Below, in pieces: positions 2,504-62,558 of a DNA stretch of 64,000 nt (position 1 is its first letter; every line of letters begins with the position of its first letter). The stretch comes from an uncultured Acidobacteriota bacterium (GTDB lineage: Bacteria > Acidobacteriota > UBA6911): NCBI GenBank assembly GCA_963827655.1, contig CAWHCF010000042.1:1-64000 (forward strand), written 5' to 3'. The position numbers and the translations under genes were made by a program. The notes beneath the pieces are model-generated. The model was not told where the DNA came from and did not search any database. It saw only the letters and a program-made list of their open reading frames with translations.

Positions 2504-2980
2504 TCACCCTGAAAACAAGCGGGGATCAATCTCAATGGCCGATGGCGGACCGATACTGATCTTGGGAAATAACGGATGCTTCGGATTCAGCAGGAGGTTC
2601 CTTTCCATCGGAACGATGACCGAAGGAACCGACACAACCACGTGCTGACCTTCAATCATCCACTTCGTTCCCATCTCCTGGGTTGACTTGGGCCAGGGAA
2701 TTTCCTTCCAGTTCTTTGGGAGGTCTGAGTCCCGGGCTTCGAATCGGGGCACCGTTTCCGGCACATCAGCCCAACGGTATTCAAGGTTCAGCCGGGTGAG
2801 ATCTGCAACCTCCGGGTCAAAGTGAACGAAAAATTCCAGCAGACAAAGGGATAGCGTAGAGCAGGTGTACACCATCGCGGTTCCGGGAAGGTTCCAGCGC
2901 GCGCCGGTGATTCTGGCCCCTTCGCCCGTGAATGCCGTGTCCCGCCGCCGCTTGCGGTAGAGGCGGTAGACCCGCATCAA
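2504..2980 (-). CDS. RES-domain toxin (NAD+ phosphorylase family)
   Basis: AFTGEGARITGARWN...Y..STLSL..LEF.VH...VPSVIVP.ERN.LLNP.H signature; overlaps the antitoxin stop. Confidence 0.92.
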   Translation of the reverse strand: MMRVYRLYRKRRRDTAFTGEGARITGARWNLPGTAMVYTCSTLSLCLLEFFVHFDPEVADLTRLNLEYRWADVPETVPRFEARDSDLPKNWKEIPWPKSTQEMGTKWMIEGQHVVVSVPSVIVPMERNLLLNPKHPLFPKISIGPPSAIEIDPRLFSG

Positions 2981-13480: not shown

Positions 13481-14545
13481 TTAACCAAGAGCGGCTGCAA
13501 CGGCCGCGCCTACTTCTTCAGTTCGAGCGCTGCCGCCGAGGTCCGGTGTCAGCGGCTTTCCTGCCGAAAGAATCCGGACCACGCTCGACTCCAACTGCTG
13601 CGAGGCGTCCGGTTCGCCCAGGAACTCCAGCATCATCGCGCCCGCAAGAATGGTTGCGAGGGGGTTGGCAATTCCCTTCCCTGAGATGTCGGGGGCCGAG
13701 CCATGAACCGGCTCGAACATTGAGGGATGAGACTTCTCCGGGTTCAGATTGGCGCTGGGAGCCAATCCGAGACTCCCGGTGATCATGGCGGTCATGTCGG
13801 TGAGAATATCTCCGAAAAGATTTGAGGCGACGATCACGTCGAAGGTCTCGGGCGCCGGATCAGATCCATGCAGGCCGCGTCGACCAGGAGCGATTCCGTA
13901 ACGATGTCGGGGAAATCCCGTGATACCTCCGCAAAGACTCGATCCCAAAACGCCATGCTGAATCCCTGCGCGTTCGACTTGGTCACCGAAGTCAGCCGGC
14001 GCTTCTTGTTGCGCCGCCGGGCCAGCTCGAAAGCAAAGCGAATGACCCTTTCGGTTCCTCTTCGGGTAAAGACGGCGGTCTGGATGGCTACTTCATCGGC
14101 CGAGCCGGTGTAAACGTTTCCTCCGACCTGAGAGTATTCGCCCTCAGTATTTTCGCGCACGACGACCAGGTCGATCTCACCCGCCTTTTTCCCGGACAAC
14201 GGAGAGGAAGCGCCTGGATAGAGAACGGACGGGCGCACGCAGGCGTACTGGTCAAAGCCGCGACGGATGGGCAACAGCAGCCCGTTCAACGTGACATTGT
14301 CCTGCAGGCGGGGATGGCCCACGGCGCCCAGGTAAATCGAATCAAACCGGCCCAGCTGATCCAACCCATCGGCCGGCATCATGGAACCATTCTGGAAATA
14401 GTACTCGGAGCCCCAGGGAAAATGATTCCATTTCAAGGCGAAAGCCGAACCGCTCTCCCGCGGCATCAAGGACTCGCATTCCGACCGGAATGACTTCCTT
14501 CCCTATGCCGTCTCCTGCGATGACGGCCACCCGATATGTTTTCAT
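13481..14545 (-). CDS. Tartrate/D-malate dehydrogenase-like (isocitrate/isopropylmalate dehydrogenase family); 2 frameshifts
   Basis: [36 protein letters not shown] and [12 protein letters not shown], split over three frames. Confidence 0.88.
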
Positions 14546-14719: not shown

Positions 14720-17700
14720 TCACCACCGAAGCCGCAGCGTCATCTCAATGATGCGAGGTCCCGCCTTTTCGTTGTCCTGATTGATGGTGCGGGCGTCGGT
14801 GATCTCGCCGGCGCGCGCCACCGAGATGTCGGTACGCGGGAACTGGAAGTGGGGCGTATTGAAAAGGTTCGATATTCCGGCGACATATTCCACCGTCAGC
14901 CGTTCCGTGGCGCGGAACTTCTTGACCATACTCAGATGCTGCAGGGTGTTGCCCGGACCTTCCAGGATATTGATGCCGGCGTTCCCGAACTGGCCGAGCC
15001 CGGGAACTCGAAATGCCGAAGGATCAAACCACAGCTCGACACGGCGGTCGCCGGCCGGAAGATTGCCGTCGGCCAACCGGTCGGGCAGCCCGCCGGTAGT
15101 ATTGGTATTCGACGGATCGGCGCCCGAGAACACGGGCGAGAAGAAGGGACCCGACTTGAAGAAGGTGAGGCTCACGATTTCCCATCCGCCCACGATCTGG
15201 TCCAGATACCCGGGCGCGTCGGAAAGATAGCGACGGCCACGGCCAAACGGCAGCGAGATCAGGGCGTTGAAAACGAATTTCTGGCGCGCCAGTTGTTCGC
15301 GGTTCCAGTGCAGGTGATCGTAGGGGTTTTCGAGGTTGAGGAAATTCGACACGTTCGACTGCAGCGTGTAGTGCGCGTCGAACGTGAAGGCTCCGGCCCT
15401 TTTCTGCACTTCCAGTTGAAAGCCGTCATAATTGCTCGCTCCGTCCTCCTGAACGTAGGTGGTCCCTACAAACTGGGGGTAGGGACGGCGATCCTGGGTA
15501 AACCGATCCAGGCTCGGGCGCGGCTTGTTGACATTGAGCGCATAGTTCAGCCCCCGGCTGCGCGACCCGATATACGAAACCCTCACTCCGAAATCCCGGA
15601 TCTGGCGCTCGACGCTCAGGTTGAACTGGTGAATCGACCCATGACTGGTCTGCAGCGGAAATCCACGGACGCTCTGCGAGGGTATCGAAGCCGAAGCCAG
15701 GCTGGTTGGAAATGGATTGGGGAAGGCAAAGCGCGGAACGCCGTTTTCAATCGCGTTGAAGTAGGTCTCGGCGATCTCGAACGGGCCACCGGACTGCAGG
15801 CGATCGAAATAGCCGACGTGTTCGGTGAACACGCCGTAGCCTCCTCGCAAAACGGTGTCGCGACCGAGACGGTAAGCAAAGCCCAGTCGAGGCCGGAAGT
15901 TGCCCAGGTCGGAATCGGGCTCCACTTCTCCGGTGACGATCTTGATATTGGCGGGATAGAGCGGGCTGACGGAGCTGAGCGCCTCCTCGGGCACGACTAC
16001 ATTGCCGGTCGCCGGGTCCCAGCTGTACTGGAGTCCGTCTTCGTAATAAGGCGCCGAGAAATAGTCCCAGCGCAGCCCGTAGTCGAGGGTGAGCTTTGCG
16101 CTCAATTTGAAGGTGTCCATCACATACAGACCGTGCTCGTAGCCGATCTGGGTCCGGTCGAGGCGCGGATCGAGGCGAATGCTGCGGTCCGGGAGCCCAA
16201 GCAGGAAGTCGGCATAGGGATGGCCCGTCAAGCTGCCATTGAATCGGAAGTCGCCGTAAGTGCCGGTATTGATCAGACTGGCGAAGCGGCCGACCCGCTT
16301 GAAGTCCCCGCCGAATTTCCAGACGTGCCGCCCCTTCGACCAGGTCAGCGACTCGGAGAAGATGAAGCTATGATCATCCTGGAGTACGCCCCCCGGATTG
16401 GTCTCGAGAAAGCTGAACCCGGTGATTTCCATTCTCGGAAAGCCCATGGCTTGCAGGTTTCCGGGATTGACCCCCTGAAGCCCGATCTCCTGGACCACCT
16501 GATCGCCGCGGCGCGGCGTGAAACCATCGATTTCGGTGCCGTCTTCGACGGAGTCCCACATCCAGCCGAAGCGGAAGGTGTTGACCAGCGTGGGGGAGAA
16601 GACGTGTGTGTCCGAGATCACCGTGCCGCGATGCCAGCGGACGCGGGTCTAGTCGAAGCCCGGCAGATTGCGCTTGAGGACGTACGGCGTGTAGCGACGG
16701 ATGTAGCGGCCGTAGATCGAATTCTTCGAGGAGATGTTGTGATCGATCCGGAACATCGGGTAGTCGGCCCGGAACAGGTCGTCCGGATACGGGTGCTCGA
16801 ACCCGAGATTGTTGACCAGGGTATCAGGATCACCCAGGTTCGGGTCCGGAATATAGAGCTGCTGCACTTTCTGGCTGAGCGGATTGAACCGCGACGCGGG
16901 CACGATATTCCCGGCGAATGGCTGATTGGTCAGCGGGTCCCTCACCGCTGAGGTAACCTGGGTGAAGTCTCCCTGGCGCATCCTCTGAGTAGGCACGGTC
17001 CCGCGGTTGAAGGAGCCGGCCGGCAGCTTCTGATGGAAGTAGGAGACGTAGAAGAAGGTGCGGTTGGGGAAAATTGGCCCGGAAACGTCCGCGTGCGCCT
17101 TGTGTTCAATGAGGACGGGCTTGCGTGGCTCAAAAAAATTGCGGGCGTTCAGCGCCGAGTTGAAGTGCGAATAGAACGCCGTCCCATGGAATGCGTTGTC
17201 GCCGCGTTTGGACACCATGTTGAAGTTCGCGACCCGGGCCTGGTCGGCCCGATTGTTGACCGCGACGACGGTGAGCTCGGTGAAGTCCATCATGTTGTTG
17301 ATCAGGTTCACGGTCCCGTCATTGGTCCAGACGCCGTCCATTCCCTCGGCAACCTGAGTCGAGGCCTGTCCCGCAATCCGCAGCGCGTAAGTTCCCATGG
17401 TGCTGTCGGTGGTGGGCAAGGTTGCCATCAATGCCTGCGGGTAGTAAGTCCGCACCATCGGGCTCGCGTCGAACAGCTTCTGGGTGAAGCCGGTCGAGAT
17501 CTCGGCCGTGTCGGTCGTGATTACGGCGCGTCCGGCCTCGACCGTGATCTGCTCGGCGACTTGTCCGACGTCGAGCCGGATGTCCATGCGCCGGATCTGT
17601 GTTCCCTCGAGCGCGATGTTGTCGGCCACATGCGTTTTGAAGCCGGTCAAGTTCGGCTCGCAGCCGGTAGGTGCCCGGCTTGAGGTCCGGCATTTCGAAG

Positions 17701-17898
17701 TTTCCGTTATTGTCCGATATGGCCGACCGCGCCAGCACATTCGTGGCGATGTCGGTCAGGGTCACTTCGACGCCGGGCACGACCAGACCACTCGGATCCG
17801 TGATGGTGCCCGCGCATCGTAGAGAGCGAAGTCTGCGCCGGAAGCGCAGCGGATAAAAACAGAGACAGAATGGGTAGCAATCTCGAGATTCGATGCAT
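14720..17898 (-). CDS. TonB-dependent receptor (Oar-like); several frameshifts
   Basis: Signal peptide MHRISRLL, carboxypeptidase-like N-domain, LDYGLRWDY, C-terminal LRLRW; split over 4 frames. Confidence 0.85.
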
Positions 17899-17969
17899 AC
17901 TTCCCTCCTGTTGGTGTTTCTTCGTGTCTTTGTGTCCTAGTGGTATTTGTTTCGCAGTGCCAACCGCAC

Positions 17970-35190: not shown

Positions 35191-35331
35191 CCAGATTACG
35201 GTAACAACCGAACCGACAACACGAATCTCGCCCGGCTTTGGCCACCAGTTCGGGGTTCTCGCCGTAAATCAGGTGCACGGCTCCATGCCGGGCCCCGTAG
35301 TACTAACCTGCGTCTTGACTGTCCGAGGGAC

Positions 35332-35345
35332 TACCATATATGGTA
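35332..35345. promoter_or_regulatory. Palindromic operator/promoter of the RHH-PIN module
   Basis: Perfect palindrome TACCATATATGGTA downstream of TTGACT (35315-35320), just before the antitoxin ATG. Confidence 0.55.
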
Positions 35346-35350
35346 ACCAC

Positions 35351-35591
35351 ATGAGACTCCTTCTAAAAACAACTCTCTATCTGCCCGAAGCCGACTATAG
35401 AAGGCTCAAGCTTCTGGCCCGTGCCAAGAAACGGTCGACGGCGGAGTTGCTGCGCGAGGCGATCGCCGAGTATGCAAACCGGCACGCCCCGCCGAGACTC
35501 CCGCGCAGCCTCGGCGCCGGCCGAAGCGGACGCGGGGACCTCAGCGAACGCGCCGAACAACTCCTGCACGGAATGGGGCGGCAGCCGGTGA
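35351..35591 (+). CDS. CopG/RHH antitoxin (VapB-like); reads in frame into the toxin in this sequence
   Basis: KTTLYLPE...LK..A....STAELLREAI and G.SGRGDLSERAE.LL. Confidence 0.8.
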
Positions 35592-36001
35592 TTGTCGCCG
35601 ACACCGGAGCGATTCTTGCCCTCATCGACGCAGACGACCATCACCACCACGCGTTGAGAGCGCTCTTCGAGGAGCAACCCGAGACTTGGATCCTGCCGTG
35701 GGCGGTGCTTCCAGAGGTCGATTATCTCCTCGCGACCCAGCTGGGACCGAAGGCAGAGCGACTCTTTGTTGCGGACCTGGCCGCTGGAACCTACAGGATC
35801 GAGTGGGGACACGACAGAGACTTCGAGCGGGCCCACGAGATCTCGACGCGCTATCGTGCTTTGAAGTTGGGGCTGGTCGACGCGAGCGTCATCGCAGTTG
35901 CGGAACGCCTCGGCGCCGGCGCTATTGCGACCCTCGACCTGCGGCACTTCGGTTCGGTTGCCATCAAGGGTCAGCCGAAACTCCTTCCCAGGGACCTTTA
36001 A
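35588..36001 (+). CDS. vapC: PIN-domain toxin (VapC-like)
   Basis: IVADTG.L.AL.D..D.HH, LPEVDY, LGLVDAS..A.AER, TLDLRHF. Confidence 0.88.
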   Translation: MIVADTGAILALIDADDHHHHALRALFEEQPETWILPWAVLPEVDYLLATQLGPKAERLFVADLAAGTYRIEWGHDRDFERAHEISTRYRALKLGLVDASVIAVAERLGAGAIATLDLRHFGSVAIKGQPKLLPRDL

Positions 36002-40829: not shown

Positions 40830-40914
40830 TGATCGAAGGGATCGCTTTCACGCGAATACCACTAAGACTCAAAGACACGAAGAATCTTAGTGTCTTCGTG
40901 GTTAGAGCTGTCTA

Positions 40915-41433: not shown

Positions 41434-41745
41434 GAGAGCTAGCAGGCACGCGCACGCGGTCTGGCGCAGGAGAAGGTGGTTGTCGGGGCGCGCTATTCCG
41501 GTGTGCTTAAATCCCTAAAATGTTTGTAATTCAGACTATCAGATCGAACAATTGCGTACTTCCTCAGGCACCGGGAATTGCGCGAGAGAAGTTTTTCCGA
41601 AGCCTCAGCACCTGCGACTGACTGGCACAAATCGTGTACAAAACGCACTCGTAGTATAATGTCTTCTTCTTCAGTCGAGTAAGGACAGCCGATCTTCCTC
41701 TCACTCAGACCGGCAGACAATTTGACGCTCCAGTGAAGCCTTTTT

Positions 41746-43237
41746 ATGGGCCTAATACCGGGCTACGAGAGCGACATCTTCATCAGCTACGCTCACAACG
41801 ACAATCTCCCTGTCCTCGATCTCAGGTGGGTAGACTGGTTTCATGAAAACCTCGAGAACCTGCTGATCGACAAACTCGGAGAAAGGCCCGTCATATGGCG
41901 CGACAGGAGGATCGATCAAACCGACCTCATTGAGGGGCTTCTCGATTCACGCGTCAATTCCTCCGCCTTGATGCTGGCCATCGTTTCGCCGAGCTACCTC
42001 AAATCAAAGTGGTGCGGGTGGGAGCGCGAGAAGTTTGTTGAAAATGCGGAAAGGCGCGGCGGGCTGCGGGTGGCCAACAAGAGTCGCATCGTCAAAGTGG
42101 TCAAGACTTACATTGAGAGCGCCAGCCTTCCCGGAGAGCTTCAAGAGACGCTCGGCGGCGAATTCCTGCGCCACGACCAAGCCGCCGGGAAATACATCCA
42201 GCTTGATTGGCAATCCCCAGAGTACCGGCAAGAGCTGGAAGCACTCGCAGATAGCGTAAAGAGCCTGATTGAAGCCTTCAGGGATCACACGGTGGCAGCC
42301 GTCCCGCTTACAAGAGAGAAGACCGTCTACCTCGCGGAGACCGATTCCGAGTTGGAGACTGAGCGCAACGACATCAAACGCGAGTTTGAACAGAACGGTT
42401 ACCACATATTCCCGAGCGTTGATCTCCCTCTCAGAGTCCACTGCCACCGCCATTGAAGAGAAGGTGCGCGACTACCTCAAGTCCGCCCAGGTCTCCGTGC
42501 ACCTGCTCGGGGCGAACTACGGCTTTGTGCCGAATAAGGGAGCGGGCCGTTCTATCGTCCGCATACAGTACGAGCTCGCGCAGCAGCACGACTCTGGCCC
42601 GGCCTTCAAACAGGTCCTATGGATTCCGAAGGGGCTGGAGGAGAGCCAGGAAAGCGAGCCTGAGCAAAGAGAGTTCATCAGCCAACTGCTGGCCAGTTCA
42701 TCCGCCCTGCGTCGCGCCGAAGTGCTGCGCGGCGACATCGAGGAATTGAAGACTTACGTGCACAACTTGTTCAGGCCGACGCCCAAATCTGTGGTTAACC
42801 TCAAAGGTAATGGCAGCACGGCCAGCGTCTATTTGATCTGCGATAAGAATGATTACGAAGAAACGGGCGCGATCGAAGAGTACCTGACCGAGCAGCACTG
42901 CGAAGTCTTGCCGACACTGCTCGAAGGCGAGGCGGAACAGGTCACACAGTATCACCGCGACAGCCTGCTCGAATGCGACGCCTTTCTCGTCTACTACGGC
43001 CGTGCCAGTTACCCCTGGGCGCTGATGAAAAAACAGGAATTCCTCAAGCTGCCGGGCCTGGGGCGGTCGAAGCCTGTCGTCGCCAAAGCCTTTTACATCA
43101 GCGGCGAGGAGAATCCGCACAAACAGCGCTTCGCCAGCAGCGAGGCTATCGTGATCAAAAATTACGACGTATTCTCACCCGAATCGCTGACTCCGTTCCT
43201 CGAGCAAATCCGCCAAGTTAAGGGACTAACGGCATGA
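41746..43237 (+). CDS. TIR-domain protein with two further TIR/DUF4062-like domains; frameshift at ~42440
   Basis: DIFISYAHND, IWRD, SPSYLKSKWCGWE (catalytic Glu position); later VYLAE...SVHLLG..YG and VYLIC...DAFLVYYG...W segments. Confidence 0.82.
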
Positions 43238-46200
43238 TCGCCGAGAGCATTGAGAAACTGTCGAACGTCCACTCGTCCGAGAACCCTTTCCCCGGACTGC
43301 GTCCGTTCGAGCTTCACGAGAGCCATCTATTTTTCGGGCGCGAGGGGCAGAGCGAAAAGCTGCTGGCTAAACTCGAGGCCACGCGCTTCCTGGCAGTCGT
43401 CGGCACGTCGGGGAGCGGCAAATCGTCGCTCGTGCGCGCGGGGCTCGTGCCCGCGTTGTTGGGCGGGATGATGGTCAGCGCCGGATCTAACTGGCGCGTC
43501 GCCCTGCTGCGCCCGAGCAATGATCCGATCGGCAATCTGGCGCGGGCGCTTGAGCTCGCCCGAGGTCTTCGGCTCGGACATTTCGGAGAATGCGGAGAGC
43601 CAGGCACGGGTCGCTGAAGCGACGCTGCGGCGCGGCAATCTCGGGCTGGTCGAGGCCGTGCGGCTGGCATTGCAGACCGCGGACGAGAATCTGCTGGTGG
43701 TCGTCGATCAGTTCGAGGAATTGTTCAGGTTCGCGCGCGAGGCCGAGAGTACGCGCTACGAAAACGACGCGGCGGCTTTCGTTAAACTGCTGCTCGAACC
43801 CTCGCGCCAATACCAGTTGGAGCAGGAAGAACTGCGCCGGAAATTACAGTCCATCGAAGGCTTACTTCGGCACCAGAAGCTGAGTCACGAAGAAGCTCGT
43901 CGAGAGGAAGCTTCAGTCCGGGAAGAAGCCCGCAAGCGTGACGCTGAGAATTTACGTCGTGCTGACGATGCGGTCGGATTTTCTGGGCGATTGCGCGAAG
44001 TTCTGGGATTTGCCCGAAGCCGTCAACGAGAGCCAGTACCTGATCCCGCGCCTGACCCGCCATCAACTGCGCGAGGCTATCGCCGGCCCGGTCGCCGTCG
44101 GCGGCGGCCAGATCGCGCCCCGCTTAGTCAATCAATTGCTCAATGATATAGGCGATAACCAGGATCAGTTACCCGTGCTGCAACACGCGCTGATGCGGAC
44201 GTGGGGCGAATGCAAGCAACGGAAGCACGACCACGTAGCCGCACCCGGTGAAATTGATGTGTGCTGTTACGAAGCAATCGGCGGGATGAAGGAGGGGCTC
44301 TCCCGCCACGCCGGCGAAGCTTACAGCGAACTCGACGCGGCGTCATCAGAAGATCGCCGAAAGGATGTTCAAAGCTTTGACCGAGAGGGGTGAGGACAAC
44401 CGCGAAATTCGTCGCCCGGCGACACTTGGCGCGCTCGCCGCCATCGCGGATGCCGGCGAGGACGAGGTCAAAACAGTTATCGAAAAGTTTCGCCAACCGG
44501 GCCGGTCGTTCCTGATGCCGCCCGCCGGGACGCCGCTGCATTCTGACACCTTGATTGACATCTCGCACGAAAGCCTGATCCGCGTGTGGAAAATATTGCA
44601 GCAGTGGGTTAATGAAGAGGCCGAATCGGCGACCATCTACCGCCGGTTGGCTGAAACCGCGGCGCTGCACGGCAAAGGCGAAGCCGAACTGTTGGGCAAG
44701 CTCGATCTGAAGCCGGTGTTGAAATGGCGGAAGAAGAACGAGCCGAACCCGCATTGGGCCGCGCGATACGAATCCGGCCTGCGCTACAAATCGGACCTGC
44801 CGGCGGCGCTGGCCTTTCTCGAAGCGAGCAAAAAGAACCGCGCGGACGAGATTGCCGAGCGCCGGCGGAGCAGGAGGGAGAAGGCGGAGCAAGGCCAGCG
44901 CCAGTTGGCGCAGGCGCAGGCCCTGGCCGAAGCACAGTCTCAGGCGGCGGACGCCGAACGGCAAAAGGCAGAAGAGCAGACTAAAGCGGCAAGCCGATTA
45001 CGGCGCTTCCTGGCGGCATTGGTCGTTGCGGCTTTGTTGGCGCTCGTGGCTGCGGGCCTCGCTCTCTCGGCGTACCGCCGCGCCAATGCAGAAAAAGCCA
45101 ACGCGAACAGACAAAAGGAGATTGCCGAAAACAGAAGAGAGGCCGAGCAGCCAAAGGGATGCACTTGATCAAAAGACCATAGCCGAGGAGAAAGACAAAA
45201 GCCGAAGACGAGAGAGGCTGAAAGCACGCGACGCGCGGCAACAAACTGAGGCAGCGAACAACGCAACTAGAGAAACGGAACGGCAAAAGCAACTGGCTGA
45301 TAGCACAGCCTACATCGCAAATATGAATCTTTCTCGGTCTGAGTTCGAAAGAGGCAATCATCAAAGGGGGTTTGAGTTACTTGACGCATATCTGCCTGCA
45401 ACCAACGCAGCGCAAGATCAGAGTGGTTTGCGGAGCTTCTATTGGTATTACCTCTGGCGACAAAACAATAGGGATTACACGCTCACCGGGCATGGGGACT
45501 TCTGTCTTGTCAGTGGCGTTCGCGCCGGACGGGCGGACGCTGGCCAGTGCGAGTGGGGACAAGTCGGTGAAGCTGTGGGACGTGCAGAGCCGCAAGGAAG
45601 TGGCCACGCTCACCGGGCATGGGGCTGTTGTCATGTCAGTGGCGTTCGCGCCGGACGGGCGGACGCTGGCCAGTGCGCAGTGGGGACAAGTCGGTGAAGC
45701 TGTGGGACGTGCAGAGCCGCAAGGAAGTGGCCACGCTCACCGGGCATGGGAGCTTCTGTCAGGTCAGTGGCGTTCGCGCCGGACGGGCGGACGCTGGCCA
45801 GTGCGAGTGAGGACAAGTCGGTGAAGCTGTGGGACGTGCAGAGCCGCAAGGAAGCTGGCCACGCTCACCGGGCACGGGGCTGCTGTCAGGTCAGTGGCGT
45901 TCGCGCCGGACGGGCGGACGCTGGCCAGTGCGAGTTAGGACAAGTCGGTGAAGCTGTGGGACGTGCAGAGCCGCAAGGAAGTGGCCACGCTCACCGGGCA
46001 TGGGGCTTATGTCTATGTCAGTGGCGTTCGCGCCGGACGGGCGGACGCTGGCCAGTGCGAGTGCGGACAAGTCGGTGAAGCTGTGGGACGTGCAGAGCCG
46101 CAAGGAAGTGGCCACGCTCACCGGGCATGGGAATGCTGTCTGGTCAGTGGCGTTCGCGCCGGACGGGCGGACGCTGGCCAGTGCGAGTGGGGACAAGTCG

Positions 46201-47274
46201 GTGAAGCTGTGGGACGTGCAGAGCCGCAAGGAAGCTGGCCACGCTCACCGGGCATGCGGACTCATGTCTGGTCAGTGGCGTTCGCGCCGGACGGGCGGAC
46301 GCTGGCCAGTGCGAGTGGGGACAAGTCGGTGAAGCTGTGGGACGTGCAGAGCCGCAAGGAAGCTGGCCACGCTCACCGGGCATGGGGATGATGTCTGGTC
46401 AGTGGCGTTCGCGCCGGACGGGCGGACGCTGGCCAGTGCGAGTGCGGACAAGTCGGTGAAGCTGTGGGACGTGCAGAGCCGCAAGGAAGCTGGCCACGCT
46501 CACCGGGCATGGGGATGCTGTCTGGTCAGTGGCGTTCGCGCCGGACGGGCGGACGCTGGCCAGTGCGAGTGAGGACAAGTCGGTGAAGCTGTGGGACGTG
46601 CAGAGCCGCAAGGAAGCTGGCCACGCTCACCGGGCACGGGGATGATGTCATGGTCAGTGGCGTTCGCGCCGGACGGGCGGACGCTGGCCAGTGCGAGTGA
46701 TGACAAGTCGGTGAAGCTGTGGGACGTGCAGAGCCGCAAGGAAGTGGCCACGCTCACCGGGCACGGGGATTATGTCAGGTCAGTGGCGTTCGCGCCGGAC
46801 GGGCGGACGCTGGCCAGTGCGAGTGCTGACAAGTCGGTGAAGCTGTGGGACGTGCAGAGCCGCAAGGAAGCTGGCCACGCTCACCGGGCATGGGGATTCT
46901 GTCTGGTCAGTGGCGTTCGCGCCGGACGGGCGGACGCTGGCCAGTGCGAGTGAGGACAAGTCGGTGAAGCTGTGGGACGTGCAGAGCCGCAAGGAAGTGG
47001 CCACGCTCACCGGGCACGGGAGTGCTGTCAGGTCAGTGGCGTTCGCGCCGGACGGGCGGACGCTGGCCAGTGCGAGTGATGACAAGTCGGTGAAGCTGTG
47101 GGACGTGCAGAGCCGCAAGGAAGTGGCCACGCTCACCGGGCATGGGGCTCTGTCTTGTCAGTGGCGTTCGCGCCGGACGGGCGGACGCTGGCCAGTGCGA
47201 GTGCTGACAAGTCGGTGAAGCTGTGGGATGGAGCTACAGACAAAGACATTGAGGACTATAAACCGAGGAAATGA
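43234..47274 (+). CDS. nSTAND1 NTPase-TM-14xWD40 NLR-like receptor; many frameshifts in this sequence
   Basis: NPFPGLRPF...[54 protein letters not shown]; hydrophobic helix at ~45005-45075; WD40 array; ends [17 protein letters not shown]. Confidence 0.85.
45479..47229 (+). repeat. 14 tandem ~126-bp near-identical WD40-coding repeats
   Basis: Units start at about 45479, 45606, 45733, 45861, 45987, 46114, 46241, 46369, 46496, 46623, 46750, 46877, 47003 and 47129; consensus [42 protein letters not shown]. Confidence 0.97.
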
Positions 47275-47439: not shown

Positions 47440-47810
47440 GATGGCCGCGAGTGTTCACGAGGGCATTTCGTGAACAGTGTAGTGGGCCGACTACCCCACC
47501 AGGAAATCCATGTGATTCTGGATAACCTGAGCACCTGCAAACCCAAGGAAAACAGCTGGCTCTCTCGGCACACAAGAATGTTCATCTCCACTACACACCG
47601 ATCCACGCTTCCTGGCTCCGCCAGGTGGAGATTTGATTTAGCATCTTGAGTGGCCGCGCCCTTAGAGGAGCAAGCTTTATTCCACCTCGCCAAGTCCGGG
47701 AACCCATCGATCGATATGTCGAAGTCCACAACCAAGAGGCTACACCTTTTGAATGGCGTAAGAGATTGTTCATCAGAACCCACTCGCATAAATACTCTAG
47801 CGTTACTCAG
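47440..47810 (+). pseudogene. IS630-family transposase C-terminal remnant
   Basis: EIHVILDNLST.K...WL..H and LSGRALRGASF...I.RY...HN....PFEW, across frameshifts. Confidence 0.7.
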
Positions 47811-47833
47811 GTACTGGCCGTGTCCTCGAGAGA

Positions 47834-47984
47834 ATGCTCTTCGGTGTTACGGTGTTGCGCCCTCCGACACCCTCGCGTTTGCCAGTACGGCACTGGTTCT
47901 CGTTGCGGCAGCCATTGTCGCGAGTCTCATCCAAGCGTGGCCGCCGCCCGCGTCGATCGGGTCACTGCACTGCGCCTGGCGTGA
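47834..47984 (+). pseudogene. C-terminal remnant of a MacB/FtsX-type ABC permease
   Basis: YGVAPSDTLAF...ASLI..W and AARVD.VTALR, split over frames. Confidence 0.6.
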
Positions 47985-48383
47985 GGGCCCTCAAGGCTCG
48001 CTGGCCTGTTGCCTGACCCGAGTAAGGCTCAGCGCCAAAACCTGTTTCGCGGTTTCAGTAGGCACGCCAGGCTTCCTCAATGGCCTCGATAGATCGCAAG
48101 TAGCGCCGCAGGGTTTACTAATCGCAGTTCACTTGGACGTAGTAGGCGGCTTACCGGACAAGTGGCGATTCACGTGGTGGTCCCTTCTGACCCGCCCCTG
48201 CGGTTTGGACGATTTCCAGAACTTGAGTTTAAGTAGCTCGATAGATGCACGCTGAATAGGGTCGCGGAAGGTGGAAAGGCGAATGAATATGCCGGACGCA
48301 ATACTCCGGGTATCCGGGCGGCTCGCGCGGAACAGTTGAAACGCGGCGCCGGAGGTGCTACAAGTGGGTTTGTGAAAAACGGC

Positions 48384-51300
48384 ATGAGGTCCCGCGCGGC
48401 ACTCCACCTACTTACGGCCGGCCTCGTCTGGCTATCCTGGACCGGCTTCGGCCGCGCACTCGCTCCGGCGCAGAGTCCCGGTCAGGAGGTCAAGTTCAAC
48501 CGGGACATCCGGCCCATCCTCTCCGACACCTGCTTCCCCTGCCATGGTCCAGATAAGTCGAAACGAATAACGGAACTGCGCTTCGACACCGAAGCCGGCG
48601 CGTTTGCCGACCTCGGGAAGTATCGCGCAATTGTTCCCGGCGATCGGGCGAAGAGCGAGATGTTCCGGCGCATCAGCGCAGAGGACGATACCGTGCGGAT
48701 GCCACCCGTCCGTTCGGGGCGCCAGTTGACCCGAGCGCAGATCGAGCTGATCGGGCGCTGGATCGACCAGGGGGCGAAGTGGCAAAAACACTGGTCCTTC
48801 ATCCCGCCCGAACGGCCTGAACTTCCTCCGGTGCAGAACAAGAAGTGGGCGCGCAATGAGATCGATTCATTTGTGCTCGAACGACTCGAACGCGAAGGTC
48901 TCGCGCCGTCGGCTGAAGCCGATCCGACTACTCTGATTCGCCGGCTCACCCTGGATTTGACCGGCCTCCCACCCACGCCGTCAGAGGTCGAGGCCTTTCT
49001 TGCTGACGGCTCGAAAGACGCGTATGAGAAAGTGGTCGACCGCCTCTTGCAATCGCCTCGCTACGGCGAACGCATGGCGACGCGCTGGCTCGACGCCGCG
49101 CGCTATGCCGACACCAACGGTTACCAGAGCGACGGCGAACGATTCATGTGGCGCTGGCGCGACTGGGTGATTGATGCGTTCAACCGGAACATGCCTTTTG
49201 ACCGCTTCACCATCGAACAGATTGCCGGCGACATGCTTCCCCAGGCCACTCTCGAACAGAAGATCGCGACCGGCTTCAATCGCAACCACCGGGGAAATGG
49301 CGAGGGGGGCGTGATTCCGGAAGAGTATGCCGTCGAGTACGTGGTCGATCGGGTCGACACGACATTCACGGTCTGGCAGGGGCTCACCATGGGATGCGCC
49401 CGCTGCCACGACCACAAGTATGATCCGATCACCCAGAAGGAGTTCTATCAGGTTTACGCCTTCTTCAACAATATCCCTGAAAAAGGGAAGGCAGTGAAAT
49501 TCGGCAACTCTCCTCCCGTGATCAAGGCTCCCACACCGCAACAGCAGATCAAGCTCACGGAACTCGACCAGAAGCTGGCCGCCGCCCGGAGCGCTTTCAC
49601 CAGGCTCGAGCCGGAGCTGGTTGCGGCACAGACGCGATGGGAGAAGTCGCTTGACGCCAGCCGTCCAATCGATTGGGCTCCCGCTACCGACCTGTCGGCG
49701 CACTATCCCCTGGACGGAGATGCAGTGGATCATTGCCTCGATTCCAAGGGCAAGAAGCCTGGCGAGGGAAAGTTTGAAAACGGCCAACCGGCGTTTGTTC
49801 CCGGCCGAGTCGGGCAGGCCGGGAATTTTGACGGCCAGGGATTCATCAACGCAGGCGATGTAGCCGATTTCGGCTTTTACGACAAGTTCTCGCTCGGCGC
49901 GTGGATCCACCCCACGGGAGAACAGGGTGGCGCGGTACTGTCACGAATGACCGAAACCGACAGAGCCGAGGGATACAGTCTTTACCTGGAAAAGGACAGA
50001 ATCCAGCTGAACCTATCGAAGCGCTGGCTGGACGATTCACTACGCGTCGAGGCCGAGAGCCCATTGGCGCCCAACCGCTGGCATCACGTGATGGCGACCT
50101 ACGATGGCTCACGCGTGGCAACGGGCGTGAAGATCTACGTCAATGGAAAACTCCAGAACCTCAAGATCAACCTCGACGACCTGAACCAGTCGTTCAAGTC
50201 AAAGGAACCGTTTCGGATTGGCTCCCTGGGCGGGACTGACGGCCGTTTCCATGGCTACATCGACGACGTGCGGGTTTACAGCCGGGCCCTCTCGGATGAA
50301 GAAGTCGAAATGATCGCGACATCCGATTCCATCACCGCCATCGCCGCTCTTCCTCGGGATCAGCGGACCAAACGGCAGGCGACGAAGATCCACCGATATT
50401 TTCTGGAAGCGGCCGCACCGGAGGCGATCCGGCAAACGTGGCGCGATTTGGTGGCCGCTCGCGTCGAGCGCGAGCAGTTTTTCGAGACCATTCCCACGAC
50501 CATGGTCATGGAGGAAATGGCAACGCCACGCGAGACCGCGGTCCTGATTCGGGGCGCCTACGATAAACCCGGGCAGAAGGTGACCGCGGGCGTGCCGGTG
50601 AGTTTGGCGCCCCTCCCTGACGGCGTGAAAAACGACCGCCTCGCTCTGGCGCGATGGCTGGCCGATCCCTCGAACCCGCTCACTGCGCGAGTCGCAGTCA
50701 ATCGAAACTGGCAGATGTATTTCGGCACGGGCCTGGTGAAGACTGTCGACGACTTCGGCTCGCAGGGAGAATCGCCCAGCCACCCGGAACTTCTCGACTG
50801 GCTGGCCACGGAGTTCGTCCGGACCGGCTGGGACGTCAAGAAACTACAGAAGACCATCGTCACGAGCGCCACGTACCGCCAGGCTTCAAGGGTAACCCCG
50901 GCGCTGCTCCAGAAGGATCCAGAGAACCGGCTGCTGGCGCGCGGACCGAGGCTGCGTTTGGCGGCTGAGATAATTCGAGATCAGGCGCTGTCCGCGAGCG
51001 GGCTGCTGGTGGAGAAGATCGGCGGGCCCTCGGTCCGGCCTTACCAGCCCGCTGGACTGTGGAAGGAGCTCACCGGAGGTGAAGACTACAAGGCTGACCA
51101 CGGGGAAAACCTGTACCGGCGCAGCCTGTACACCTTCTGGAAGCGGACGATTCCTCCGCCGATGCTGACGACGTTTGACGCGCCGGCGCGCGAAACCTGC
51201 GTCGTGCGCGAGACACGGACGAACACCCCGCTCCAGGCGCTCAGCCTCATGAATGACGTGACGTACGTGGAGGCGGCGCGAGTGCTGGCTCAACGCGTCA

Positions 51301-51569
51301 TGAAAGAGGCTTCGACTCCCGCGGCACGCGTATCGCTCGCGTTCCGCCTGGTCACGGCTCGCCCGCCCCGCGACAGCGAGCTTAAAGTGATGCTCGAAGG
51401 GTTGGAGCATAACCTGGCCCAGTACCGGAGTGATAAAAGTGGGGCGTCAAAGCTGATTCGCGTGGGGGATTCGGCGCCGGACGAAAAGCTCGACCCGAGT
51501 GAACTGGCCGCCTACGCCGCCGTGGCAAGCTTGATCCTGAACCTCGACGAGACGGTCACGAAGGAATAG
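48384..51569 (+). CDS. Planctomycete cytochrome C / DUF1549 / LamG / DUF1553 (PSD1) protein
   Basis: [43 protein letters not shown], LamG insert, [18 protein letters not shown]. Confidence 0.9.
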
Positions 51570-51585
51570 GCCCGAGGAGCCAAGA

Positions 51586-53058
51586 ATGAGTCCGCTGCTT
51601 GAAAAACGGCTGCTGGTCACACGCCGGCATTTTTTTGGCCTTACCAGCCTCGGTCTTGGCACGGCGGCACTCGCGTCCTTGCTTAACCGGGATCTTCTGG
51701 CGGCACAGGGGCCGGGGACCGGTGACGGTGGAGCGCCGTCCGGCGGTCTTCCCGGGCTGCCCCATTTCGCGCCCAAAGCCAAACGTGTGATTTACCTGTT
51801 CCAGTCGGGCGCGCCGTCGCAAATGGACCTGTTCGACTACAAGGCCAAGCTCAAAGATTTTGCGGCTAAGGAGTTGCCTGACTCTATCAGGATGGGGCAG
51901 CGGTTGACCGGGATGACGGCAACCCAGTCGAGCTTCCCTGTCGCTCCCTCAATTTTCAAGTTCGCCCAGCACGGAGACTCCGGAGCCTGGGTCAGCGACC
52001 TGCTGCCGCATACAGCCCGGATCGTAGACCAGTTGAGCTTCATCAAGTCGATGCACACGGAGGCGATCAACCACGACCCGGCGATTACATTTTTTCAGAC
52101 CGGCGCGCAGCTGGCGGGCCGCCCGAGTATCGGCGCCTGGTTGTCCTACGGGCTTGGGAGCGACACTCATGATCTTCCTGGCTTTGTCGTCATGGTCTCG
52201 CAAGGATCTACTGGCGGAGATCAGCCACTCTACGACCGGCTCTGGGGGAGCGGTTTCCTCCCGACCAAGTATCAGGGGGTGAAGTTTCGATCAGTGGGTG
52301 ATCCGGTGCTCTATTTGTCGAACCCTCCGGGTCTCGGGGAGGGTACCCGGCGGCGAATGCTCGACGATCTGGCGAAAATGAATCAGTTGAAGCTTCAGGA
52401 GTTCGGAGATTCCGAAATTGCAACCCGCATCGCGCAGTACGAAATGGCGTTTCGCATGCAGACGTCAGTTCCGGAACTGACCGACCTGTCGAAGGAACCG
52501 GAGCAAGTCTTCGAACTCTATGGACCCGACTCAAAAAAACCGGGGACCTATGCCGCCAACTGCCTTCTGGCCCGCCGCCTTGCCGAGCGCGGTGTCCGTT
52601 TCATCCAGCTGTTTCATCGCGGTTGGGATCAGCACACGACCCTGCCCAAGGGGATCACGGCTCAGTGCCACGACACCGACCAGGCATCCGCCGCGCTTAT
52701 CCTGGACTTGAAGCAACGAGGCCTGCTCGACGACACGCTGGTTGTCTGGGGAGGGGAGTTTGGCCGAACCGTCTACTGCCAGGGTAAGCTCACGGCTGAC
52801 GATTACGGACGCGACCACCATCCACGCTGCTTCACCGTCTGGATGGCCGGCGGCGGCATCAAACCAGGCCTCAGCTACGGCGAAACCGATGACTACTGTT
52901 ACAACATCGTGCGCGATCCGGTCGACGTGCACGACCTGAATGCCACCATTCTGCATTGCCTGGGAATCGACCACACGAAGCTGACGTTCAAATATCAGGG
53001 ACGTCACCACCGGCTCACCGATGTGGGCGGACACATCGTCGATAAACTCCTGACCTAG
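51586..53058 (+). CDS. DUF1501 protein (Tat-exported)
   Basis: [50 protein letters not shown]. Confidence 0.92.
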
Positions 53059-58430: not shown

Positions 58431-58609
58431 CCCCAGACTCAGTTTTCTTCGCGTCTTCGTGCCCTCGTGGTTAGCTGAAATACCACCAGGACGCAAAGAC
58501 ACCAAGAAATTCATTCGTTGCAATCGTCTTTTTTTCCGGCTAATGTTTGAGACTGTAAGTGTGCGGGGAGCTTCAAGATGGCTTGCGAGTTCCCCGTCCC
58601 CTCTGGCAA

Positions 58610-61105
<2,496 letters not shown>

Positions 61106-61115
61106 TTTTTTTACT

Positions 61116-62558
61116 ATGAATCCTACTCTACTCCAGACCCGCCGGCACTTCTTCTCCGACTGTGCGGTTGGCTTGGGCAAAATCGCTCTGGCTTCGCTAT
61201 TCTGCGGCCCGCAGGTGTTCGCCCAGGAGAAATCCAAGCTCTCAAACCCGCTGGCTCCGAAGAAGCCTCACTTCCCCCCGAAAGCCAAAAGCGTCATCTA
61301 TCTCTTCATGGCCGGCGCCCCGAGCCAGCTGGAATTGTTCGACTACAAACCGAAGCTGAATGAAATCGACGGACAGCCAATCCCCGACTCGTACATGAAG
61401 GGAAAGCGGTTTGCCTTCATGGACACGTTCGCCAAGGAAGTGCCTCGATTGCTCGGCACGCGCCGGAAATTCGCCCAGCATGGCAAGTGTGGCGCCTACG
61501 TCTCGGAATGCCTGCCGCACATCGCTACCGTGGTCGATGATCTGGCCATCGTGCGTTCCGTGTCGACCGAAGTTTTCAATCACGCGCCGGCCAAGGTGTT
61601 CGTCAATACGGGTTCGGCGCAGTTCGGACGCCCGAGCATGGGCGCCTGGATTACCTACGGGTTGGGAAGCGAGTCGCAGGATCTTCCGGGGTTCGTGGTA
61701 CTGCAGTCCGGCCCGCGCGGCCCGCGCGGCGGCGCGGCCAACTGGGGAAGCGGTTTTCTTCCCACCGCCTACCAGGGAGTTCCCTTCAGCTCCGTCGGCG
61801 ACCCGATTCTCAATCTGGCGAATCCCGCCGGAATAGATCCACGTCGTCAGGGTCAGGCCATCGAGGCGCTCCGGGATCTGAACCTGACTCGCCTGTCCGA
61901 AACCGGCGACTCCGAGATCGCCACACGAATCGCGTCTTATGAAATGGCCTACCGGATGCAGACCAGCGCCCCGGAATTGATGGATCTGTCGGGCGAAACC
62001 AAAGAAACGCTCGAACTGTACGGCGTGGAACCTGGGAAGACTTCCTTTGCCAATAATTGTCTGCTCGCGCGCCGCCTGGTGGAACGGGGCACGCGATTCA
62101 TTCAACTCTACCATGCAGACTGGGATCACCACGGCGGGCCCGGACAGGATCTTGACGGGAGTCTCGACAAGGTGTGCAAGGAAGTAGATCAGCCTGTTGC
62201 CGCGCTGATCAAGGATCTCAAGCAGCGCGGCCTTCTCGACCAGACGCTGGTGATCTGGGGTGGAGAATTCGGCCGCACCCCGATGGGCGAGAAGCGCGAG
62301 ACGACCGGCCGCAATCATCACATCGACGCCTATACCATGTTGATGGCCGGCGCCGGAATCAAACGGGGAATCACGATCGGCGCCAGCGATGAACTGGGTT
62401 TTTCTCCGGTCGAAGATCCAGTGCACATCCACGACTTACAGGCTACGCTTTTACACCTTCTTGGAATCGACCACCTGAAACTTACCTTTCGCTTCCAGGG
62501 GCGGGATTTCCGACTCACGGATGTCGCGGGCAAGGTCGTCACCAAGCTGCTTGCCTAG
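61116..62558 (+). CDS. DUF1501 protein (Tat-exported)
   Basis: [44 protein letters not shown]. Confidence 0.92.
   Translation: MNPTLLQTRRHFFSDCAVGLGKIALASLFCGPQVFAQEKSKLSNPLAPKKPHFPPKAKSVIYLFMAGAPSQLELFDYKPKLNEIDGQPIPDSYMKGKRFAFMDTFAKEVPRLLGTRRKFAQHGKCGAYVSECLPHIATVVDDLAIVRSVSTEVFNHAPAKVFVNTGSAQFGRPSMGAWITYGLGSESQDLPGFVVLQSGPRGPRGGAANWGSGFLPTAYQGVPFSSVGDPILNLANPAGIDPRRQGQAIEALRDLNLTRLSETGDSEIATRIASYEMAYRMQTSAPELMDLSGETKETLELYGVEPGKTSFANNCLLARRLVERGTRFIQLYHADWDHHGGPGQDLDGSLDKVCKEVDQPVAALIKDLKQRGLLDQTLVIWGGEFGRTPMGEKRETTGRNHHIDAYTMLMAGAGIKRGITIGASDELGFSPVEDPVHIHDLQATLLHLLGIDHLKLTFRFQGRDFRLTDVAGKVVTKLLA

Follow-up and report, generated by a model that had tools for sequence, protein, structure and literature searches.

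The two-gene locus

We examined 64,000 nucleotides (nt) of DNA (contig CAWHCF010000042.1, positions 1 to 64,000, assembly GCA_963827655.1) from an uncultured Acidobacteriota bacterium of the lineage UBA6911; this whole stretch is called the window hereafter. Our subject is a locus of two genes on its plus strand, at 41746-47274. The first gene starts at 41746, stops with a TGA at 43235-43237, and encodes a protein with a TIR domain (the TIR protein). The second, whose ATG (43234-43236) meets the TGA of the first in an ATGA overlap (43234-43237), encodes a nucleoside triphosphatase (NTPase) of the STAND class that is followed by a hydrophobic helix and an array of WD40 repeats. On balance, we take the locus to be one copy of a conserved module in which a TIR protein is paired with a membrane-anchored STAND receptor that would recruit and activate it, and we regard the frameshifts that interrupt both genes in the assembly as most likely artefacts.

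An initial annotation of the window, made from the letters alone, had described a TIR protein that keeps the WCxxE glutamate, the ATGA overlap, a STAND N-terminus devoid of an effector, a transmembrane (TM) helix, and 14 WD40 repeats. All of these features recur in our analysis (Table 1). The state of the reading frames was underplayed, however: the TIR gene as assembled is spread over two frames, and the nSTAND1 gene, far from running in one continuous frame, occupies five before the array is reached.

Table 1. Features of the locus and its downstream border. X1 to X4 are soil-metagenome runs whose contigs were compared with the window; D1 to D3 are the domains of the TIR protein.
Feature	Position	Strand	Basis or remarks
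TIR gene, D1, TIR_2/FxsC_Nterm-like TIR	41746..42285	+	Pfam TIR_2, 39.6 bits; WCxxE Glu codon 42022-42024
TIR gene, D2, DUF4062-like	42310..42781	+	Gln codon 42566-42568 at the catalytic-Glu position; split by extra base 42436/42437
TIR gene, D3, third TIR/NDT-fold domain, predicted NTPase docking surface	42812..43237	+	Fold match; interface in the complex model
NTPase segment 1	43234..43547	+	nSTAND1 profile 1-88; Walker A 43402-43425
NTPase segment 2	43550..43942	+	nSTAND1 profile 91-148; Walker B 43697-43720
NTPase segment 3	43947..44339	+	nSTAND1 profile 151-277
NTPase segment 4, coiled coil, single TM helix 45007-45075	44341..45130	+	nSTAND1 profile 269-370
WD40 array, stop 47272-47274	45478..47274	+	14 units 95% alike; Pfam WD40 61-83 bits on open pieces
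IS630 transposase remnant (weak)	47455..47571	+	NCBIfam NF033545, E 0.011, 15 bits, profile 208-247 of 299
ADOP permease C-terminal remnant (weak)	47848..47940	+	TIGR03434, E 0.054, profile 759-789 of 803
Frameshift 1, extra base (AGA-G-TCC), TIR gene	42436..42437	+	Frame 1 to 2 at 42430-42437; base absent in X1 (42436), X2 and X3 (42437), 3 of 3 covering runs
Frameshift 2, extra base, NTPase	43548..43549	+	Frame 1 to 2; base absent at 43548 in X1 (2 contigs) and X4
Frameshift 3, extra base (GAC-G-C-TG)	43943..43946	+	Frame 2 to 3; base absent at 43944 in X4
Frameshift 4, extra G	44339..44340	+	Frame 3 to 1; base absent at 44339 in X1 and X4
Frameshift 5, complex indel in the post-TM linker	45131..45182	+	Frame 1 to 2 between 44841 and 45182; X4 contig 5 letters longer at 45131-45156

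A TIR protein with three TIR-fold domains

The first domain (D1) of the TIR protein matches TIR_2 at residues 11-104 of the open reading frame (ORF) 41746-42456 (E value 8.6e-10; Pfam cut-off 28 bits), and its motif in the window reads W-C-G-W-E. The NCBIfam model FxsC_Nterm also recognises D1, with 44.0 bits in the window and 53.7 bits in the homologue P0002 (profile 4-177 of 182; equivalog cut-off 130). Among relatives, the intact TIR protein has about 496 residues and contains TIR_2 and often DUF4062 (PF13271); the latter family surpasses its cut-off in P0051 (46.6 bits) and P0125 (41.2 bits), and the match is precomputed for many relatives.

The folds of the domains were compared by VIA-align, using domain ranges from an AlphaFold2 model of P0002 (mean predicted local distance difference test score, pLDDT, 73.8). 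D1 (residues 6-180, of which 8-177 were aligned) matches the SPARTA TIR domain 8spo_A with a Z score of 13.1 and a root-mean-square deviation of 2.7 over 137 residues, and plant TIR domains match as well. The second domain (D2; 189-345) resembles DNPH1 (Z 12.2), with scores down to 11.3 for CMP N-glycosidases and a TIR domain, and the third (D3; 356-496) resembles the TIR domain of TIR-STING (Z 11.5) and a deoxyribosyltransferase (Z 11.1). Alignments of the three sequences with hhalign are not significant for D1 with D2 (P 0.18) or D3 (P 0.26) and marginal for D3 with D2 (probability 27%, P 6.9e-4); thus, it is structure that underlies the statement that all three have a TIR fold. A Foldseek search with the whole P0002 model was set aside, as it gave weak, mixed matches (TMq 0.13-0.23) in which TIR chains, even at a probability of 1.00, covered one domain.

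Conservation across 81 sequences distinguishes the domains. In D1, C90 and E93 are invariant (81/81). In D2, H252, Q274 and W292 are invariant, and the residue at the position of the catalytic glutamate is glutamine in every sequence. In D3, Y362 and D369 are invariant and W424 is found in 80 of the 81. In an alignment with two canonical DUF4062 domains from the same genome, Q274 falls on the glutamate of their E-Y pair; we took the identity of this catalytic residue (in the S-x-T-E-x-E-Y region) from 2026 bioRxiv preprints. In those preprints, DUF4062 proteins changed from glutamate to glutamine lose defence or NADase activity. Given the glutamine in D2, this domain is most likely inactive, making D1 the candidate enzyme; its intact catalytic glutamate suggests that it could cleave NAD+. 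The term "multi-TIR effector" used in the initial annotation was therefore too generous, as the catalytic glutamate exists in D1 only and D3 looks like a docking domain.

A putative transmembrane receptor with a WD40 sensor

The nSTAND1 (PF20703) match begins at residue 18 of the NTPase, and there is thus no space for an N-terminal effector. Four pieces in successive frames, scoring 103.9, 25.3, 112.7 and 58.5 bits (cut-off 27.1), together span profile positions 1-370 of 379. The Walker A (GTSGSGKS) and Walker B (VVVDQFEE) motifs are intact in the window and invariant in 47 relatives, and the NTPase of the intact orthologue L016 is 79% identical to that of the window.

Past the NTPase lie a hydrophobic helix of 23 residues, a charged linker, and then the WD40 array. 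This arrangement is a family trait: each of the 57 complete NTPases has a single 19-residue segment of strong hydrophobicity after the NTPase, at residues 472-639 (Kyte-Doolittle mean 1.9-3.35), and the same single segment is present in eight incomplete NTPases long enough to reach it. The 15 residues before the helix contain, on average, 5.9 Lys and Arg, versus 2.8 in the 15 after it (n = 65), which is the pattern of an N-in, C-out anchor. A conserved single helix with such a flanking charge bias argues for a transmembrane receptor, rather than a cytosolic NLR. What follows the helix is variable. WD40 propellers occupy this place in 37 of the 57 complete NTPases; elsewhere there are TPR repeats, TPR repeats with an M74 murein endopeptidase, a propeller with a ConA-like lectin domain, DUF2914, or nothing recognisable. 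The NTPase is thus probably a type II transmembrane receptor. The NTPase depends on NTP, and its predicted partner carries no export signal; both would thus reside inside the cell, with the sensor outside the cytoplasm.

The sensor of the window's protein comprises 13.8-14 tandem WD40 units at 45478-47228/47282, with 95% matches between units. Substitutions are limited to 11 of 126 columns and fall into two patches (52-68 and 116-118). The array has a period of 127 nt versus the in-frame 126, the latter being the period of relatives' WD40 arrays. Units are 125-128 nt long and only three of 13 have the in-frame length; over these 13 units we count 11 one-base insertions, of which one (GAAG-C-TGG) is common to six units, and one deletion.

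Linkage, natural fusion and predicted binding of the two proteins

The pairing of the two genes is conserved. A word-index search with the C-terminal part of the TIR protein identified 47 relatives; a set of contigs with a single genome for each species yielded 129 relatives, from which 80 loci were retained. The nSTAND1 gene lies directly downstream, on the same strand and a few tens of bases or less from the TIR stop codon, in 75 of these. In three it lies upstream (L049, L054, L058), and in two the contig ends 2 or 53 bases past the TIR gene. TIR-nSTAND1 linkage thus holds in 78 of 78 informative loci, which answers the initial annotation's call to examine the gene pair in other genomes. 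Most hosts are Acidobacteriota or Verrucomicrobiota; Pseudomonadota, Bacteroidota and Desulfobacterota account for some, and SAR202 for one.

A profile search of 1.84 billion representatives returned 3074 clusters (at 50% identity) with E values of at most 1e-30; the best 150 of these 3074 matches are all below 3e-148. Ten longer proteins among the 150 matches listed were scanned with Pfam. One of them, P0175 (972 residues), is a natural fusion, in which the three-domain TIR module (2-484) is connected to nSTAND1 (504-921; 332 bits) by a linker of about 20 residues. The other nine have extra Ser/Thr kinase, CHAT protease, LRR or TIR domains. When longer, fused forms of P0002 were sought earlier by word index, none appeared, which is weak evidence; P0175 came to light later by profile search. 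A scan of metagenome contigs with P0002 found no relative. In the window's own genome the locus is single-copy, with no second copy of its DNA or of the TIR protein, and the C-terminal part of the TIR protein was found in none of 40 searched relatives of this genome. Members of the TIR family that carry extra kinase, CHAT, LRR or TIR_2 domains include P0072, P0096, P0114, P0173, P0178, P0058, P0125 and P0164.

We also modelled the complex of the L016 NTPase (residues 1-500) and the whole TIR protein, using our own alignments of 47 rows each. The model scored 0.76 in three runs, compared with 0.00 for the best of three controls. A mark of 0.76 is reached by 58 of 80 solved complexes and by two of 110 mismatched pairs, a calibration that is rough since our own alignments were used. 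At least 87% of contacts are common to the runs, and the partner pLDDT is at least 80. The modelled interface joins residues 2-48, 73-87 and 274-307 of the NTPase to residues 315-340 and 366-463 of the TIR protein (D3 and the end of D2), and it includes the conserved H403 and W424 of D3 and the conserved N-terminus of the NTPase. The P0175 fusion connects the same two ends. The model, which had been suggested as a check in the initial annotation, thereby supports the pairing and the notion that the TIR protein binds to the NTPase.

A proposed mechanism

We propose that the NTPase is cytoplasmic and anchored as a type II membrane protein, with the TIR protein held on its N-terminal face via D3 and the sensor exposed to the periplasm or the cell exterior. 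An outside ligand would then induce NTP-dependent oligomerisation inside the cell. Oligomerisation would gather the D1 TIR domains, and the ensuing cleavage of NAD+ could result in growth arrest, cell death or a signal. The module is probably a conflict or immunity system. The initial annotation had pictured a two-component, NLR-like system in which the receptor activates the TIR protein in trans. The two-gene, in-trans part of that proposal is strengthened by the linkage, the natural fusion and the complex model, whereas its cytosolic, NLR-like part is weakened by the TM helix and the charges around it.

The reading frames and alternative explanations

An important question is whether the locus is intact in the cell. 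Frame changes were mapped by tblastn with L016, and Logan contigs from soil-metagenome runs of four studies (X1 to X4) were compared with the window over the covered parts of 41700-45450. At all four single-base sites these contigs, 90-99% alike to the window, are one base shorter, which puts close relatives in frame. One relative, P0048, is an intact TIR protein of 496 residues that is 88.7% identical to the window's. At site 42436/7, the placements of the gap imply two alleles, AGA-TCC and AGA-GCC, whose Ser and Ala both occur in relatives, and the AGAGTCC of the window contains the letters of both. When the NTPase is read through its breaks, all 66 invariant columns and 129 of the 133 columns conserved at 90% or more are kept, with no stop in 629 codons; intact members of the family miss 1-13 conserved columns (median 5). 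Private changes in the TIR protein number 10 of 317 in the window, the lowest figure in a set of five close relatives (15, 21, 22 and 39 in the others). A period of drift long enough for five indels should have relaxed constraint; we see no such relaxation, which speaks against long decay. Repeats tell a similar story genome-wide: of 22 long tandem arrays, frames are broken in 11 of 13 with unit identity of at least 80% versus three of nine below 80%, where "broken" denotes a longest open frame well short of the span, in arrays presumed to be coding. We think it likely that the frameshifts are consensus errors of long-read metagenome assembly at strain-variable or repeated positions, and both genes are probably intact in the cell. 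The initial annotation had reserved the name of pseudogene for frameshifts confirmed as real; those found here are real in the assembly and probably artefacts.

Several facts weigh against this interpretation, and they begin with the possibility that the locus is a true pseudogene, functional in a recent ancestor, which acquired several insertions and whose array was then homogenised with frameshifted units. Both genes are, after all, broken as assembled (four single-base insertions, one complex indel and 12 array indels), with five frame changes falling in 3.4 kb of unique sequence and few array units in frame. The insertion common to six of the 13 units is as expected of gene conversion after inactivation. 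By itself, the number of indels fits neutral sequence about 2.5% diverged, with about five indels to about 85 substitutions being compatible with neutral decay; IS630 and permease fragments adjoin the locus; and a nearby gene, for an OMP_b-brl_4 barrel, has an in-frame TAG, a possible sign of real decay. Further, none of the comparison runs is the source sample, the best containing 0.21 of sampled words. The extra bases amount to G-C or G-T pairs, yet most strain differences are transitions (114 of 183 in X1), and the mechanism by which both alleles are kept is thus demonstrated at one site only. Nevertheless, decay is difficult to reconcile with 629 NTPase codons without a stop, with the retention of every invariant column, and with so few private changes in the TIR protein. 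The four simple events, moreover, are all +1 insertions outside homopolymers, one of which coincides with a polymorphic base; throughout the assembly, arrays of high unit identity are mostly broken; and a housekeeping-type gene of the window, Iso_dh, is frameshifted too. We therefore regard a pseudogene as rather unlikely.

Even if the genes are intact, the receptor might work otherwise than we propose. The evidence for its topology consists of hydropathy and charge, the binding of the two proteins is the prediction of a model, and D2 of the window scores 16.9 bits against DUF4062, under the cut-off of 24.7. In a cytosolic NLR-like receptor of the Apaf-1 or Avs kind, the helix would not span the membrane and the WD40 array would detect a ligand inside the cell. 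A cytosolic location is usual for STAND proteins that carry WD40 or TPR sensors (PMC13581612, PMC7159879), and the charge bias at the helix of the window is small (five Lys and Arg before versus four after). A lone hydrophobic segment of this strength at the same place in all 57 complete relatives, the family-wide charge bias, and the murein endopeptidase or lectin domain that follows the helix in some members make this arrangement distinctly improbable. Another possibility is that the module belongs to an envelope or environmental signalling system, with no part in immunity or cell death, in which the TIR folds serve as scaffolds or make signalling nucleotides. Metabolic genes directly adjoin the gene pair in the window, a catalytic glutamate is lacking in two of the three TIR-fold domains, and Ser/Thr kinase domains are fused to many family members. 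None of the STAND, Avs or NLR models of PADLOC 2.0 matched the NTPase module; there were only weak P-loop matches (mad3, mad8, AbiLi), and the single strong match, HEAT-ARM_XIII, was on the WD40 repeats. ThsB matched the TIR piece of the window weakly (21.7 bits, E 2.3e-5) and the intact P0002 not at all at E values of 0.001 or less, in a Thoeris comparison that covered ThsB. A signalling role is, however, at odds with the invariant catalytic glutamate of D1, the free swapping of sensors between relatives, the hypervariability of WD40 units at few codons, the existence of a CHAT protease fusion, and a distribution in which the module was found in none of the 40 searched relatives, yet is present in Acidobacteriota, Verrucomicrobiota, Pseudomonadota, Bacteroidota and the SAR202 cluster. 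Such features are hallmarks of conflict systems (PMC8195603, PMC7159879). We consider the signalling alternative unlikely, if somewhat less so than the cytosolic one, and retain the membrane-anchored TIR-STAND module as our interpretation.

Relation to known systems

The nSTAND1 NTPases are a STAND clade of conflict systems that count TIR domains among their partners (Kaur, Burroughs, Iyer and Aravind, eLife 2021, PMC8195603). The present module shares with these systems the NTPase clade, a listed TIR partner and variable C-terminal sensor repeats. It differs in that the effector is a separate three-domain protein and the NTPase lacks an N-terminal domain, whereas the described systems use N-terminal effector-associated domains (EADs) or fused effectors; a TM helix between NTPase and sensor is a further difference from what is described there.

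A similar design is seen in the TIR-ParA dyads (bioRxiv 10.64898/2026.10.19.760177), in which an active TIR domain (TIR-FC, FxsC) fused to an inactive one is encoded upstream of a ParA protein. The ParA part may be grafted onto nSTAND1, or the protein may span the membrane once, as a type II receptor whose sensor is extracellular. Like our locus, these TIR-ParA and FxsC-FxsT dyads combine upstream active and inactive TIR domains with a downstream NTPase bearing a variable sensor, and the FxsC_Nterm match of D1 in P0002 may point to FxsC itself, although the cut-off is far above that score. In contrast to the dyads, the TIR protein here has three TIR-fold domains with a DUF4062-like one in the middle, and the TM helix follows a STAND module, not ParA; neither Pfam nor NCBIfam matches reveal a ParA domain at the N-terminus of the NTPase.

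DUF4062 has been described as a TIR-like NADase in the 2026 bioRxiv preprints, which present PsAvs2-DUF4062, Swarozyc, Vulcan, Vesta and Evangelion and note that human TEP1, NWD1 and NWD2 have the architecture DUF4062-NACHT-WD40. D2 is like these NADase (NIR) proteins in fold and motifs, and the combination of DUF4062, STAND and WD40 parts resembles that of TEP1/NWD, split over two genes. However, D2 has glutamine where they have glutamate, the likely enzyme here is the D1 TIR domain, the NTPase is nSTAND1 and not of the NACHT or Avs2 type, and a TM helix is present. With Avs and bNACHT proteins the module has in common a STAND NTPase, a repeat sensor, an NADase-type effector and the expectation of oligomerisation; in those proteins, however, the effector is fused to the rest in one polypeptide and the sensor is cytosolic.

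The WD40 arrays of fungal HET-E/NWD-type proteins show high internal conservation. The array of the window resembles them in the near-identity of its units and in the confinement of substitutions to two patches, a likeness of pattern. The protein of the window is bacterial, membrane-anchored and of a different NTPase clade.

Our full-text literature search found no description or experimental test of this exact architecture, although the supplements of PMC8195603, PMC13581612 (a 2026 census of 589 STAND clades that mentions WD40 sensors) and the ParA preprint may list it. The initial annotation had reasoned that a match to an already catalogued system would remove the novelty of the locus. No system catalogued in PADLOC 2.0 matches the NTPase module, as noted above; even so, the degree of novelty must be scaled down, as nSTAND1-TIR conflict systems, and dyads of active and inactive TIR domains with an NTPase, including forms like type II receptors, are already in print.

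Surroundings of the locus and other broken frames

An intergenic repeat (repeat families D3/D4/D8/D10), with more than 12 copies in the window, flanks the locus at 40840 and 53095, and no copy occurs in between, in agreement with the initial annotation. The repeat is about 45 nt long with the core ACCACnAAGACnCGAAGACACnAAG and follows many genes (3475, 6114, 7825, 10187, 13418, 19315, 33648, 40840, 53095, 57812 and 62551); reverse copies are found at 17911, 22768 and 55549. The IS630 and permease debris that the same annotation placed at the border is supported by weak NCBIfam traces downstream (Table 1), whereas a Pfam scan of the region at about 47455-47940 gave no match.

Elsewhere in the window, an ORF for a RES-domain toxin (2504-2977, minus strand) and an ORF with RHH_1 and PIN matches (35273-35998, plus strand) are likely toxin-antitoxin genes. 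Two paralogous gene sets, at 48336-53058 and 58559-62558, have 71-75% DNA identity over repeat families D5, D7 and D9, and the former includes a protein of 1077 residues with PSCyt1, PSCyt2, PSD1 and Laminin_G_3 domains. The Iso_dh gene (13481-14469, minus strand) is in two frames (profile 31-231 and 229-348), with one G apparently missing in CCGGAG; it may reflect indel errors or be a second broken gene in the window. The TAG in the OMP_b-brl_4 gene (14720-17740, minus strand) lies near 16630 (…GFD*TRV…) and could be a genuine nonsense mutation or an erroneous substitution.

The tandem arrays of the same genome include C13:53560-55365, C41:92242-93630 and C52:182636-183681; the first, with a period of 128 and 14.4 copies, matches the WD40 array of the window in unit size and copy number. 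Two nSTAND1 genes 12 kb apart, at C36:15496-16973 and C36:27874-29402 (both minus strand), are each split near profile positions 133-150. They shift in the opposite direction, and we therefore discarded the idea that all frameshifts of the genome are +1. Inspection of the insertion sites by eye gave no convincing common motif, for instance one for methylation. Counted by hand, 40 of the 321 strain differences fall on third (20), first (14) and second (6) codon positions, numbers that are too few, and too mixed with paralogous contigs, to be of use.

Implications

The module may be a bacterial counterpart of Toll-like signalling, assembled from different parts. According to this idea, which we offer only tentatively, a hypervariable WD40 sensor at the surface would detect non-self (phage parts at adsorption, competitor proteins or kin markers) and signal via the STAND NTPase to a pre-docked TIR enzyme; the glutamine-bearing DUF4062 domain would act as a nucleotide-binding brake or amplifier, and shuffling of units in the 95%-identical array would create receptor diversity within populations.

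There is also a practical lesson for long-read metagenome-assembled genomes of this kind. Fast-evolving, repeated immune loci gather consensus indels in them, and such loci are thus under-called as pseudogenes. The module itself is common, with its 3074 clusters and its presence in at least five bacterial phyla. The invariant glutamate-to-glutamine change makes its DUF4062-like domain a probable natural pseudo-enzyme in a family recently described as NADases. If the topology proposed here is true, STAND/NLR-type switches would extend from cytosolic to cross-membrane sensing, with a defined docking domain that supplies a TIR enzyme in trans.

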